A stretch of DNA of 64,000 nucleotides from Chryseobacterium sp. (GTDB taxonomy: Bacteria; Bacteroidota; Bacteroidia; Flavobacteriales; Weeksellaceae): NCBI GenBank assembly GCA_027492795.1, contig JAPUEB010000035.1, positions 63,221 to 127,220 of the forward strand, given 5' to 3'. Each line of letters begins with the position of its first letter. The stretch's first letter is position 1. The notes beneath the pieces were generated by a model, which saw nothing but the letters and a program-made list of their open reading frames with translations, had not been told where the DNA came from and ran no database searches. Position numbers and translations under genes: made by a program. Below, piece after piece: positions 49,420 to 52,579 of the stretch.

Positions 49420-49696
49420 AAAAAAGAGTTTTAAAATTCTGAAAAAGTAAAATAAATACAATAAGAAAAACAACTACACTTAGAAAATACTTCAATAAAC
49501 GATTACCAATTCTAGGCAATTCTTTTACATAATCCGGTTGATAGTTTTTCCAAATGAAAAACAGAAAAATAAAGATTGAAACAAATCCAAAAACTTCCGA
49601 AATTCTCGCCAACCACAATTCTCTATTTGCCGAAAACCACTCCTGCAAATATTCCTTTAGTTCAGAGAAGAACTGATTAAAAATCCTCATTTTCAA
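49343..49696 (-). CDS. Hypothetical membrane protein (3' end overlaps the convergent DUF1304 gene by 77 nt)
   Basis: 117-aa ORF with 2 TM. Its start overlaps the nrnA stop region. Confidence 0.4.
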   Translation of the reverse strand: MKMRIFNQFFSELKEYLQEWFSANRELWLARISEVFGFVSIFIFLFFIWKNYQPDYVKELPRIGNRLLKYFLSVVVFLIVFILLFQNFKTLFSTKEVKQSTPKSQEAPVQKIFFWKP

Positions 49697-50687
49697 TTTT
49701 CTCTTTGAAATCTTCTATCGTTTCATAAATATCTTTAAAATATTTTCCGCCGGCTGCATTGATGTGTCCACCTCCGTTGAAGTATTTTCGTGAAAACTGG
49801 TTTACATCCACATCATCTTTGGAACGGAAAGAAATTTTAATAAAATCCTCATACAAATCTTCCATAAAAAACGCGGACATTCTCGTTCCGGCAATGCTTA
49901 AACCATAGTTTACAAAACCTTCGGTGTCGCCTTTTTCAAATCCAAATTCTTTCAATTCGTCGCGTTTTAAATATAGAACGGCGACTTTTCCGTCTTTTAC
50001 AACTTCTATTCTGCTTAAAATTAAAGATAAAAGATGAAGGCGTGAAACGGTATTGGTGTCCCAAGTATTAGAAGTAATCATCGCCGGATCTGCACCTTTT
50101 TCAATTAAATTTGCAATAATTCGGTGTGTTGTAGCCGAAGTGGAACGAAAACGAAATCCACCTGTATCCGTCATAATTCCGGTGTAAAGGCACTCTGCAA
50201 CATCTTGGTTTACATGTTTTTCTTCATCCAGAGCTTCAATAAAATGATAAACCATTTGGGAAGTCGCGGGAATCGTAACATCCGAATACACAAAATCAAA
50301 ATTTTCTGGCTGCTGATGATGGTCAATAAGTATTTTTTTTGCCTTTGCACGCTCAATCCAAGGTGCTACCAAATTTCCGGCGCGGTGAGAAGCATTGAAA
50401 TCGAGAACGAAAATAACATCTGCCTCATCAATCATTTCCCAAGCTTTTTTACGCTTGTAGTCGGCAATGGTGATTTTTTTTGCTTCTGGCATCCATTTTA
50501 AGAACTTTGGAAAATCATTTGGAACAACAATTTCTGCTTCCAATCCCTTGTTTTTCAAAAAATATTTCAACCCAAGCGAACTTCCAATCGCATCGCCATC
50601 CGGATTGTAATGCGTGATGATGACTATTTTGTTTTCAGGCGTTAAGAGTTGATTGATTTGGGAAAGTTCGGTAGAATTAAACATCAT
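49677..50687 (-). CDS. nrnA: Bifunctional oligoribonuclease / pAp phosphatase NrnA (DHH-DHHA1)
   Basis: 336 aa. HYNPDGDAIGS, DHH, C-terminal GGGHINAAG. Confidence 0.85.
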   Translation of the reverse strand: MMFNSTELSQINQLLTPENKIVIITHYNPDGDAIGSSLGLKYFLKNKGLEAEIVVPNDFPKFLKWMPEAKKITIADYKRKKAWEMIDEADVIFVLDFNASHRAGNLVAPWIERAKAKKILIDHHQQPENFDFVYSDVTIPATSQMVYHFIEALDEEKHVNQDVAECLYTGIMTDTGGFRFRSTSATTHRIIANLIEKGADPAMITSNTWDTNTVSRLHLLSLILSRIEVVKDGKVAVLYLKRDELKEFGFEKGDTEGFVNYGLSIAGTRMSAFFMEDLYEDFIKISFRSKDDVDVNQFSRKYFNGGGHINAAGGKYFKDIYETIEDFKEKIENEDF

Positions 50688-50852
50688 TTTATTGAAATTT
50701 TTTGGGAGGTCAAAGATAGGGATTTGAGAAGTAAGTTTGAAGTTAAACGGAAAATTTGTAAAAAATTAAAATTAATTCTGAAAATTAATTTATACATTAA
50801 GATAATATTTATATATTAGTCAAAATTTTACGAAATATAGCATTTGCTATTT

Positions 50853-50964
50853 CTTGTTAAGGAAAACTGGTAATTTTTCGAAAAGCAACAAGAATAGGCG
50901 ATGCTCACGCTTCGGCGTGGGCTTGTTTATTTGTTGCTTGGGTATACCAGTGCCTCCTTAACAG
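50853..50964 (+). ncRNA. Candidate structured RNA (three-tier hairpin capped by a C(UUCG)G tetraloop). Class unknown
   Basis: P1 is 50853-50872 paired with 50945-50964 (16 bp, one bulge, one internal loop). P2 is 50884-50891 with 50931-50938 (8 bp). P3 is 50903-50910 with 50915-50922 (8 bp, UUCG loop). Confidence 0.35.
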
Positions 50965-51001
50965 TAAACATAGTTCCACGCTTTTTTTATAAACAAAAAA
51001 C

Positions 51002-51044
51002 AACGGAACTGTTATAGAATATTTTGTATGCCGTTCCGTTTTTA
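51002..51044 (+). terminator. Possible terminator hairpin with a competing upstream alternative pairing
   Basis: aacggaac (51002-51009) pairs with gttccgtt (51033-51040), followed by TTTT. The 23-nt loop is large. agttccacg (50972-50980) can instead pair with cggaact (51004-51010). Confidence 0.35.
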
Positions 51045-51217
51045 CTTTGCGTTTTAAGAGTATAGCACAGAAAGTTTTAAAAAACTATACCAAATGGAAA
51101 ATATTTTATGACAAAAGGTAGGAAAAACCGAAAACCTACCTCCGAAAGGAAAGTCTGAAAACTTCTCTGTAGAAGTTTCGGTAAAAAAAGTAGGATTTTT
51201 ATAAATTTAATAACATC

Positions 51218-51454
51218 ATGAAAAAAATTGTTTTTCTTGCCACTATCATGTTTATAATAGGTGGCTCCTCATTAGTAAATAATGCAAATGCATGTTCAGT
51301 AGATGGATATGTAGGTCCAAATGGAACTAGCTGTATATATAAGGATTCTGCTGGCTGTTTTTGGAAAGTTACAAGTCATCGATTTCTATTCGGTTTATTC
51401 AAATGGAATACTGAAGAGATGGTTACTTGTGATCAATCATTTGCTCCTTTTTAA
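51218..51454 (+). CDS. Small secreted Cys-rich protein
   Basis: 78 aa. Signal peptide ..SLVNNANA, then a 53-aa mature part with 4 Cys. Confidence 0.45.
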   Translation: MKKIVFLATIMFIIGGSSLVNNANACSVDGYVGPNGTSCIYKDSAGCFWKVTSHRFLFGLFKWNTEEMVTCDQSFAPF

Positions 51455-51504
51455 TCAATCTTTGGCTTTCCAGTCGGAAAGCCATTTAAATTTCATTATA
51501 ATTT

Positions 51505-52170
51505 ATGAATAGAACACCTTTAATCGTTTTTTTACTTTTTTATTTTCAGTTTTTTAATTCTCAAACGAAATTTGAGGATACATTAAAAACAAAAGAAATA
51601 GAAACAGTAATTATAAATGAACATGATTACACAAAAGTTAATATTTCCTATGATTTGACTAAAGAAACAAACACCAGGTTACTTGTAGATCCTTTTTTTG
51701 AAATTGGAGTTGTGTTTAGAAATACTGAAAAACAAAAAGGACGGATAAACAATGTAAAGCTATATCTCCATAAAACTGAAAAAGAAAGAGTTACAACCAC
51801 TCTCGAAATTATTTTTTATGAACTGGATACCTTAACAGGGAAACCCGGAAAAAAAATTAATACAGAGAATCTTTATTATACTCCCCCAAACAAAACAAGG
51901 AAAATTGTAAATATCAATGTTTTGAATAACAAAATTCCATTTCCTGAAAACGGAATTTTTGTGGCAATAAAATGGTTGCCGACTCCAAATGGAGATAAAA
52001 AAGTTGGTCCTTCCGTACGATTGACGGCTTATTCTGAAGAACTTACTTTTATGAGACACAATGGTGGGAATTGGATTAGAAAAGGAAATATATTTTCTAA
52101 AAGTAATCGTTATACCAATTTGATGATGGGAATTGATGTATACTATAAAAAGAAAAAAAATGAAAACTAA
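51505..52170 (+). CDS. Hypothetical secreted protein
   Basis: 221 aa with an N-terminal signal-like helix. No motif recognised. Confidence 0.55.
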   Translation: MNRTPLIVFLLFYFQFFNSQTKFEDTLKTKEIETVIINEHDYTKVNISYDLTKETNTRLLVDPFFEIGVVFRNTEKQKGRINNVKLYLHKTEKERVTTTLEIIFYELDTLTGKPGKKINTENLYYTPPNKTRKIVNINVLNNKIPFPENGIFVAIKWLPTPNGDKKVGPSVRLTAYSEELTFMRHNGGNWIRKGNIFSKSNRYTNLMMGIDVYYKKKKNEN

Positions 52171-52579
52171 ATATTTGTACATAATCATTGCGCTATTGTG
52201 CATTGTTATCGTTTCGCTACTTACATATGAGAAAACGGAAACTTATGTTTTTAAAAGTGACAATACTGTTTTTACACATAATTTTGGAACAATTAAAAAA
52301 GAAGCAGACTCCATTATTGAAATTGAAATCAACTACCTAAACAAAGAATTTGATTCCTTAAAAGTTTATGACGTAAAAGATGGTTGTGATTGCACCAACA
52401 GTAATGTGAGAGCAGGAGTGTATAAAAAAAATGAAACTATTTCTATAAAAACCTTTTACAATCCAAACAAATACAATGATTCAGGTGAAACGATTAAACA
52501 AATTTTCCTACGTACAAATAAGAAAACCATTAGGTATGATACCATAATTCCTATAAAAATAAAAGGATTTGTGAAATAA
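52160..52579 (+). CDS. DUF1573-like membrane-anchored protein
   Basis: MKTKYLYIIIALL.. anchor. HNFGTIKKE and DGCDCT resemble the DUF1573 HFDFG/GCGCT motifs. Confidence 0.55.
   Translation: MKTKYLYIIIALLCIVIVSLLTYEKTETYVFKSDNTVFTHNFGTIKKEADSIIEIEINYLNKEFDSLKVYDVKDGCDCTNSNVRAGVYKKNETISIKTFYNPNKYNDSGETIKQIFLRTNKKTIRYDTIIPIKIKGFVK

Follow-up and report, generated by a model that had tools for sequence, protein, structure and literature searches.

What does a structured RNA do in the spacer between nrnA and a gene for a small secreted peptide in Chryseobacterium sp.? The spacer lies in a 64,000-nt stretch of DNA (hereafter the window; assembly GCA_027492795.1, contig JAPUEB010000035.1, positions 63,221 to 127,220 of the forward strand), and positions given without a contig name are those of the window. 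An initial annotation, made from the letters alone, had described there a long hairpin of three tiers followed by two competing hairpins, and had likened the layout to an antiterminator/terminator switch. In this study, the feature was confirmed to be a conserved structured RNA. It has two mutually exclusive folds, a single rod and a pair of hairpins, both of which are backed by covariation. Our reading, to which we assign a probability of about 0.6, is that the RNA is a promoter-proximal bistable attenuator or insulator placed before accessory operons. The switch-like interpretation of the initial annotation was broadly right.

A conserved structured RNA in the nrnA spacer

According to the listing of open reading frames (ORFs) in the window, positions 50688-51217 (530 nt) are non-coding, with nrnA ending at 50687 and a 78-aa ORF beginning at 51218, as had been annotated. 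The plus strand of 50840-51050 was predicted to fold at -69.5 kcal/mol, compared with -43.7 +/- 4.0 kcal/mol for shuffled sequences (z = -6.5; 0 of 200 shuffles equalled it). The minus strand of the same segment folds more weakly (z = -4.5). The annotated hairpin with the C(UUCG)G cap is real and lies at 50855-50963, with its apex at 50910-50915. Its tiers, given in the initial annotation as 16, 8 and 8 bp, had to be redrawn as P1 (9 bp), P2 (7 bp), P3, which is a long interrupted helix, and P4 (8 bp). A 5' mini-hairpin, P0, precedes them (Table 1).

Homologues with compensatory changes in the helices were found in relatives, a check that had been proposed for this feature. BLAST against 40 relatives recovered the hairpin core in four other genera, including one genome of a different family (f13). 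A covariance model (R1), seeded with the window copy and built from five sequences, gave full-length matches in 93 of 151 Weeksellaceae genomes (35 of 49 genera), with 1-12 copies each; over the 151 genomes, the matches numbered more than 230.

The pair counts of P0-P4 (hereafter State A) were taken from an alignment of 75 homologues. Standard pairs fill 91% of the State A cells, and this value falls to 37-42% when the partners are slid. The number of cells changed on both sides is 396, against 126 in shuffled alignments, and 0 of 500 shuffles reached 396. Nearly every pair of P1 and P2 occurs as three to four pair types, and P2 is paired in 100% of the 75 sequences (for example, CG 55 / UA 20 and UA 43 / CG 27 / AU 4). 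P4 (GCUCACG/CGUGGGC) is 99.7% paired and never changed on both sides. The conserved U-G pair of P4 (71/75) and the many G-U pairs elsewhere establish that the plus strand is the RNA strand.

Comparison with known RNAs and repeats

A search of the whole window against Rfam 15 at the gathering score, which the initial annotation had recommended, gave no match to the RNA; the RNA is absent from Rfam 15. At E <= 10, the segment 50650-51260 and 20 homologous loci gave noise only (U4, LhrC, mir-84). The initial annotation had offered 6S-Flavo (RF01685) and Flavo-1 (RF01705) as candidates and had found no likeness to the signal recognition particle (SRP) RNA (RF00169). All three are non-coding RNAs (ncRNAs) of Bacteroidota or Flavobacteria, of similar size and with long hairpins and internal loops, but none of them matched 50650-51260 at E <= 10. 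The SRP RNA of this genome (C18:13743-13840) and its best 6S-Flavo-like match (C18:91859-91963) lie on another contig. The SRP, 6S and 6S-Flavo identities were therefore rejected, these RNAs being elsewhere in the genome or not found, and neither of the two offered candidates stood. The 6S-Flavo-like match, on the minus strand (locus L016), is itself below threshold (54.3 bits, where 85 are required; E = 7e-8) and is probably the diverged 6S RNA of this genome.

FopS/GibS small RNAs (sRNAs) resemble the present family in being multicopy in Bacteroidota and functionally linked to the expression of SusC-like transporters (PMC11697453). FopS, however, is about 65-70 nt long, is confined to Bacteroidaceae and acts in trans on translation initiation regions (PMC11697453), whereas the family of the window is about 165 nt long and cis-linked. 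It was found in none of the 31 genomes of the largest family (f32) of our phylum sample. The FopS identity was thus rejected on size and clade. Another family of sRNAs, with six members (BTnc020, BTnc054 and others), adjoins transposases or invertases (PMC11697453).

A repeat, a miniature inverted-repeat transposable element or a palindrome acting as DNA was also rejected. The element is single-copy in its own genome (97% complete), and the copies in other genomes have diverged with compensatory changes. The conserved G-U pairs, many of which lie in the tail helix described below, fit an RNA of the plus strand only. A phage origin was rejected as well: a phage collection gave no match to the RNA, and viral contigs gave 9 pattern matches among 2.9 million.

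Two alternative folds and a putative terminator

In the second fold (State B), the element forms two separate hairpins. The 5' hairpin (50852-50893) has a core stem with the helix H-a at its apex. The variable pair of the core (UCU[Y]G against C[R]AGA) occurs as CG 27, UA 23 and UG 3 with 1 mismatch, and pairs of H-a occur as AU 50 / UA 12 and AU 57 / GC 5. For H-b, the apex of the 3' hairpin, the counts are UA 53 / CG 6 / UG 10 and AU 46 / UA 6 / GU 9, and it is 91% paired, compared with 37-65% when slid. The nucleotides that look like conserved internal loops are thus the stems of H-a (GAAAW[CUGGUAA]WUUUC) and H-b (GGUA[UACCAG]UACC, both in their family forms), the P2 strands serving as the loops. 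A clamp provides an alternative partner to P0 for AGCA. Its variable pair (the nucleotide after AAGC against that before GCUCACG) occurs as UA 25, AU 24, GU 19 and GC 13 among 99 distinct raw copies, and it is pairable in 84 of 97, where about 49% would be expected.

The two folds compete for one strand, beta, in which the P4 3' arm is extended by the three bases that follow it (GCGUGGGCUC). Beta is invariant in 75 of 75 aligned copies save for rare G-to-A changes, and it is complementary to the 3' tail (GAGUYCCAYGC in the family consensus). The tail:beta helix is 91.6% paired, and its outer 'toehold' pair occurs as CG 33 / UA 12 / AU 4. Where G-to-A occurred in beta, C-to-U compensated for it in the tail; four AU cells, each from a separate lineage, show this (L098, L053, L022 and L034; handles with L denote loci and those with G genomes). 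About 90 of 98 copies have a U-run behind the tail. A G+C-rich beta:tail helix followed by U7, with beta also engaged in P4, is the layout of an intrinsic-terminator attenuator. The 3' end of the RNA would thereby lie at about 50985-50990.

The 3' half alone (50914-50992) was predicted to fold at -28.1 kcal/mol (z = -4.5). In ViennaRNA calculations on 11 members, 6 had State B as the fold of lowest energy or had it no more than 1-2 kcal/mol from State A. Folding of successive prefixes gave the 5' hairpin first, which was then thermodynamically overtaken by P3/P4, so that the outcome would be a kinetic competition. A kissing contact between the H-a and H-b loops inside a four-way junction was judged sterically implausible; between the two separate hairpins of State B, such a contact would be possible. 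Pairing of the P0 3' strand (GCUUAGAA) with the downstream UUCUAAGC was dropped, since, although it holds in Chryseobacterium-type loci, it shows no covariation in Flavobacterium-type loci.

The competition that had been noticed downstream of the long hairpin was also found: AGUUCC (50972-77) of the tail and GUUCCGUU (51033-40) are both complementary to about 51002-51010. The latter strand forms a second terminator-like hairpin (Table 1), the 5' arm of which, GGAACU (51005-10), is the complement of the tail AGUUCC. In about 18 of 96 loci, such competing hairpins recur: a complement of the tail lies about 17-36 nt past it at a fixed offset, and it covaries with the tail (AAAUGUCCC/GGGACAUUU in L109, AAUUCCC/GGGAAUU in L054 and UGUCCC/GGGACA in L113). 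As a trait of the whole family, pairing between the tail and the downstream leader was rejected, because it is significant in about 12-18 of 96 loci, all in the short-leader subclass. The terminator/antiterminator layout of the initial annotation is therefore present, but the main switch lies inside the element and not solely in the downstream hairpins.

Relation to the hth-associated ncRNA and dCas12f-sigmaE

Hoffmann et al. (Nature 2026; PMC13472631) reported rpoE-dcas12f loci that carry a divergent helix-turn-helix (HTH) gene, hth. An abundant "hth-associated ncRNA", the function and promoter of which were stated to be unknown, is located between hth and rpoE and also, upstream of susCD, beside homologues of hth; seven loci of this kind occur in Chryseobacterium gleum (PMC13472631). 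The targets matched by the guide RNA (gRNA) "precisely overlap" these ncRNAs on the same strand, and dCas12f-sigmaE recognizes a target-adjacent motif (TAM), namely a 5'-G, with the start site placed 46 bp (45-48) downstream of it (PMC13472631).

R1 gave full-length matches (E 1e-19 to 1e-20) in four loci (L037, L038, L040 and L052) where the RNA has an XRE hth gene on one side and, on the other, a 271-aa sigma70 gene that precedes dcas12f. In one genome (G069), the order is hth, RNA, a 271-aa sigma factor, a 365-aa dCas12f and the gRNA, which ends ...UAUACAAC-GGCGUGGGCUCUUUU. The same order was found in five more Weeksellaceae loci and one Salegentibacter locus, and the 15-mer of scaffold plus seed lies about 90 nt 3' of dcas12f throughout. 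The guide GGCGUGGGCUC matches the RNA element on the same strand. The guide seed GCGUGGGCU, as read from the guides of 7 loci, is identical to beta, the invariant 3' arm of the apical hairpin.

In the window, G50914 at the TAM position followed by GCGTGGGCTT (50915-24) equals the seed of guides from other genomes rather than from its own, and GCGTGGGCT occurs in its own genome at this site only. G occupies the TAM position in 82 of 90 copies. The distance from TAM to tail is 60-77 nt in all 90 copies measured, so a start at +46 would always fall after beta and before the tail (at about 50960 in the window).

Judged by the published description, the genomic context and the guide match, the window RNA is an orphan copy of the hth-associated ncRNA family. 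The two share the phylum, the position between hth and rpoE-dcas12f or susCD, the strand, the gRNA target with its 5'-G TAM and the occurrence in multiple copies, and the model built from the window matches rpoE-dcas12f loci at E ~1e-20. The window copy differs in its surroundings: it has no hth neighbour, the divergent gene upstream being nrnA. A cargo of susCD, two-component-system or rpoE-dcas12f genes in a genome with dCas12f was not found either; three small exported proteins follow the RNA instead. Relative to the published description, three things are added by the family as seen here: about 85 nt of conserved upstream sequence in covariation with the 3' part, a -7 box of the Bacteroidota type and two alternative folds.

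In the sample of 151 Weeksellaceae genomes, dCas12f was detected in 25, and all 25 carry the RNA. Conversely, dCas12f was not detectable in 68 of the 93 RNA-bearing genomes, most of which also lacked the gRNA 15-mer. The genome of the window yielded neither dCas12f (one protein query) nor the gRNA 15-mer (one motif). Modules of the hth-RNA-susC and hth-RNA-tlpA types were found in genomes without detectable dCas12f (for example, G010, G141, G070, G150 and G106). Since the RNA has been kept in 68 genomes in which one query each detected no dCas12f, it appears to have a role independent of dCas12f. Three small genomes of genus g24 (G077, G132 and G157) contain a gRNA-like 15-mer, ATACATCGGCGTGGG, and no dCas12f by the G069 protein query; this could reflect either a divergent effector or orphan guides.

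It is worth considering here that the released RNA might act in trans as a decoy or 'anti-guide', negatively regulating dCas12f-sigmaE by titrating gRNA-loaded dCas12f through complementarity to the guide. A negative-regulator role of the ncRNA was hypothesised by analogy with anti-sigma factors and is favoured by the authors, who also reported the RNA to be abundant (PMC13472631). Since the tail and the P4 5' arm each pair with beta, which equals the guide seed, both are necessarily complementary to that seed. However, about two thirds of the RNA-bearing genomes, including that of the window, lack detectable dCas12f or gRNA and have nevertheless kept the RNA, beta and the cargo, and action in trans would require neither the close distance of the following gene nor its strictly kept orientation, both of which are described below. 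We therefore regard the decoy as unlikely.

Distribution and genomic context

In the phylum-wide sample, the RNA was found in 24 of 151 genomes, with a patchy distribution. Named genomes were scanned with a degenerate pattern, and matches re-scored by the covariance model placed it in Chryseobacterium, Flavobacterium, Kordia, Maribacter, Flagellimonas/Allomuricauda and Salegentibacter, and further in Belliella, Siphonobacter, Dysgonomonas, and Prevotella-like and other metagenome-assembled genomes of Bacteroidales. It is also plasmid-borne in Chryseobacterium and Rhizosphaericola. On the Chryseobacterium shandongense plasmid NZ_CP033916 (60652-60804; L169), the RNA is preceded by a LexA-family regulator together with an imuB/dnaE2-like cassette, and is followed by a protein sorted by the type IX secretion system. 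The family therefore moves on mobilizable plasmids.

The genomic context of about 97 loci was tabulated. In 89 of 95, the gene that follows the RNA has the same orientation, often at a distance of just 45-75 nt. Cis-regulation of the downstream genes, a role that the initial annotation had put forward for the secreted-peptide genes of the window, is the best reading of this arrangement. The 89 downstream proteins include 23 SusC-like TonB receptors, 5 proteins of sigma70 type and 5 TlpA-like proteins; the remainder are mostly small exported proteins without a family.

The same counts bear on the possibility that the RNA is a stand-alone stable sRNA, working with a protein partner or by base-pairing to mRNA, with an incidental neighbourhood and with folds that serve maturation, for example by cleavage of the P4 loop. 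Its multiple copies, its own promoter-like box and its terminator-like end would suit such an RNA. The published RNA-seq 5' end, apparently at beta, would likewise agree with processing to a 3' half, about 79 nt in length, that has a very stable fold. An incidental neighbourhood is nevertheless hard to reconcile with co-orientation in 89 of 95 cases, and at many loci the ATG follows within 45-75 nt, which is too short for an independent Bacteroidota promoter and a leader. Some loci, moreover, form a subclass in which the tail is complementary to the downstream leader and covaries with it. A stand-alone sRNA is therefore improbable in our judgement.

A leader of the riboswitch type, sensing a ligand or protein, should also be weighed, with the conserved internal loops as a pocket that shifts the balance between States A and B. 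Two conserved alternative folds with a terminator as expression platform, together with the many downstream TonB-dependent SusC-like transporters, a class often under riboswitch control, would be consistent with it. The conserved loop nucleotides, however, are largely explained as the H-a and H-b stems, the downstream genes are extremely heterogeneous and mostly without assigned function, no Rfam riboswitch is similar, and no candidate ligand emerges. We consider such a leader very improbable.

On the upstream side, the neighbouring ORF is divergent in 68 of 97 loci, and 37 of the 63 scanned encode an XRE-type HTH protein. The association with hth is thus frequent but not obligatory. Homologous loci have a TAnnTTTG -7 box about 25 nt upstream of P0, often beside a GTTAC-N8-GTAAC palindrome. 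In several loci (for example L021, L026, L028, L039 and L042), this palindrome lies between two TAnnTTTG boxes, about 30-50 nt 5' of the RNA. It is likely to be the operator of the divergent XRE HTH protein, which agrees with the inverted repeats reported near hth (PMC13472631).

Some further arrangements were observed. In SusC/TlpA-type loci (L021, L025, L026, L029, L042, L064 and others), a second conserved leader block, ...TTCTAAGC ... TACAATGG-N7-CCATTGCGGC ... CACGGGA, which includes a hairpin, lies about 60-130 nt 3' of the RNA and may represent an additional RNA regulator in the interval from the ncRNA to the transporter gene. In L043, L045 and L046 (1501-1671, 2646-2809), a serine recombinase gene is followed by the RNA, a gene for a 268-aa membrane protein and, about 1 kb further on, a second RNA copy that is much weaker (42.6 bits). 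A serine recombinase also lies immediately upstream of the RNA in L007 and L035.

Proposed mechanism

On the basis of the two folds and the geometry of the loci, we propose the following scheme. In State A, the 5' half would pair with the 3' half through P1-P4, leaving the tail UAGUUCCACGC free, and RNA polymerase would pass the U-run. In State B, the 5' half would fold on itself through the AGCN:N'GCU clamp, the UCUYG:CRAGA stem and H-a. Beta (GCGUGGGCU) and the P3 3' strand could then pair with the linker and the tail to form a long hairpin that ends in U7, an intrinsic terminator that would release an RNA of about 165 nt. The topology would be 1:2 plus 3:4 for the terminator and 2:3 for the antiterminator, with the P1/P2 rod locking the antiterminator. 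At the window locus, a free tail, as the sole opener, may pair with GGAACU (51005-10) and open the second terminator (51002-44 plus U5); with the tail locked in the first terminator, the second would stay intact.

In genomes with dCas12f-sigmaE, the guide RNA would bind DNA at the site encoding the terminator's 5' strand. A transcript begun 46 bp past the TAM would contain the tail and the U-run without their beta partner, and the terminator could not form, whereas transcripts from an upstream promoter could form the beta:tail terminator. From geometry and pairing, we infer that a +46 start would bypass the terminator in this way. Termination at the U-run and the choice of state during transcription are, like this bypass, parts of the model. 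Since neither dCas12f, a guide RNA nor hth was detected for the window copy in its own genome, expression of the downstream exported proteins would there be set by the RNA's own partition between States A and B.

The scheme resembles classical attenuators (the trp-leader type, and the ribonucleic antiterminator (RAT)/terminator of the BglG/SacY family) in that beta is common to the antiterminator and to a terminator with its U-run, and in the nested upstream 1:2 hairpin. In contrast to them, the family of the window has no conserved leader peptide and no known binding protein, its antiterminator state is locked by the long-range P1/P2 rod, and its terminator 5' strand is also the DNA target of an RNA-guided sigma factor.

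Several points weigh against the attenuator reading. First, the alignment (A4) was fitted to a State A-like model, and the State A counts given above are thus biased toward State A. Second, ViennaRNA prefers State A in the window by about 9 kcal/mol (-57.4 against -48.2), and termination there would require a kinetic trap or a pseudoknot. Third, four copies from Flavobacteriaceae and Cytophagales (L059, L078, L080 and L111) keep the tail and have no U-run; these may be non-terminating variants. Fourth, HTH and the ncRNA were dispensable for activation in reporter assays (PMC13472631), a result that is compatible with an insulator role and is no demonstration of one. Fifth, the guide-like sequence lies in the middle of the element here, with about 85 conserved and covarying nucleotides upstream, whereas it was placed at the 5' end of the ncRNA in the published work (PMC13472631). 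This difference would mean that the abundant species has been processed to a 3' half, or else that the 5' boundary adopted here is too generous; in the former case, with the 3' half corresponding to the stable hairpin of the State B terminator, the two accounts would agree. Sixth, the calls of dCas12f absence depend on one protein query and one 15-mer.

More broadly, and only tentatively, we suggest that the hth-associated ncRNA as a family, a bistable attenuator or insulator, is older than dCas12f-sigmaE and much wider in distribution; that the guided start splits its terminator and yields a 5'-truncated transcript, the free tail of which would also open the second terminator at loci such as that of the window; and that dCas12f-sigmaE was exapted onto this RNA switch. 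As far as we could find, the two-state terminator model, the target on the terminator 5' strand, the promoter-like box and the wider distribution have not been described before.

The window locus

The features of the locus are collected in Table 1. The three co-oriented genes downstream are presumably the cargo regulated by the RNA; the 78-aa protein has no Pfam family match. Located between the housekeeping genes nrnA and rpmH, the cargo resembles a small inserted islet. No synteny of the RNA with nrnA was found in relatives.

Table 1. Positions in the window of the RNA, its helices and the neighbouring features
Feature	Positions	Strand	Remark
Whole RNA element	50837-50990	+	~165-nt structured RNA, intact copy
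P0, 5' mini-hairpin UAUAGC-AUUU-GCUAU	50837-50850	+	P0 cells 95.5% paired
State A rod, long hairpin	50855-50963	+	P1-P4; fold z = -6.5
P1, 9 bp	50855-63 with 50955-63	+	Rod
P2, 7 bp	50866-72 with 50945-51	+	Rod
P3, long interrupted helix	~50877-50901 with 50923-50943	+	Rod
P4, 8 bp, UUCG cap (50911-14)	50903-10 with 50915-22	+	Rod apex
State B clamp AGCA:UGCU	50839-42 with 50902-05	+	Alternative to P0 for AGCA
State B 5' hairpin core UCUUGUU:AACAAGA	50852-58 with 50887-93	+	Covariation, constrained fold
H-a, GAAAA:UUUUC, loop CUGGUAAU	50862-66 with 50875-79	+	Apex of 5' hairpin (50852-50893)
H-b, GGUA[UACCAG]UGCC	50941-50954	+	Apex of State B 3' hairpin; P2 3' strand as loop
Beta strand, G + GCGUGGGCUU	50914-50924	+	P4 3' arm and putative terminator 5' strand
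3' tail UAGUUCCACGC (50971-81), then U7 (50982-88)	50971-50988	+	Putative terminator helix with beta
Second terminator-like hairpin, AACGGAAC (51002-09) with GUUCCGUU (51033-40), then U5	51002-51044	+	By folding
-7 box-like TATATTAG	50812-50819	+	Near match to Bacteroidota consensus TAnnTTTG
nrnA	49677-50687	-	Divergent gene upstream of RNA
78-aa cysteine-rich secreted peptide ORF	start 51218	+	First gene downstream of RNA
Presumed cargo: 78-aa cysteine-rich secreted, 221-aa exported and 148-aa membrane-anchored proteins	51218-52579	+	Co-oriented ORFs

The -7 box-like TATATTAG occupies the position at which most homologues have TAACTTTG or TAATTTTG, about 25 nt 5' of the 5' hairpin. It is a candidate promoter of the RNA, with a predicted start at about 50822-50830. 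The box of the window is imperfect; the closest perfect TAnnTTTG box on the plus strand is at 50732-50739, and there is no perfect one within 50740-51217.

This imperfect box raises the question of whether the window copy is a decaying, inactive relic of a mobile module of hth, RNA and cargo. The single copy, the missing hth neighbour, the lack of a detected dCas12f or gRNA and the position of the module between nrnA and rpmH would be in line with decay. On the other hand, all helices of both folds, beta, the TAM G, the tail and U7 are intact, and the locus-specific second terminator matches the tail, and chance would hardly be expected to preserve such a match in a relic. A relic is thus a rather remote prospect, and we retain the reading of a functional attenuator or insulator.

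Significance

For the window itself, the meaning is modest: an orphan member of the family stands before three exported proteins of unassigned function. For the dCas12f-sigmaE system, the scheme proposed above would give a concrete mechanism to a loose end, namely the abundant RNA on every native target: it would be a terminator the 5' strand of which is the guide's DNA target. If true, exaptation onto an older RNA switch would explain both the enigmatic ncRNA and the invariance of beta. Natural insulators of the hth-associated ncRNA type could possibly be reused in the genetic engineering of Bacteroidota. That most RNA-bearing genomes in the sample are without detectable dCas12f bears on how targets would be kept silent without the activator, and on how the system evolved.

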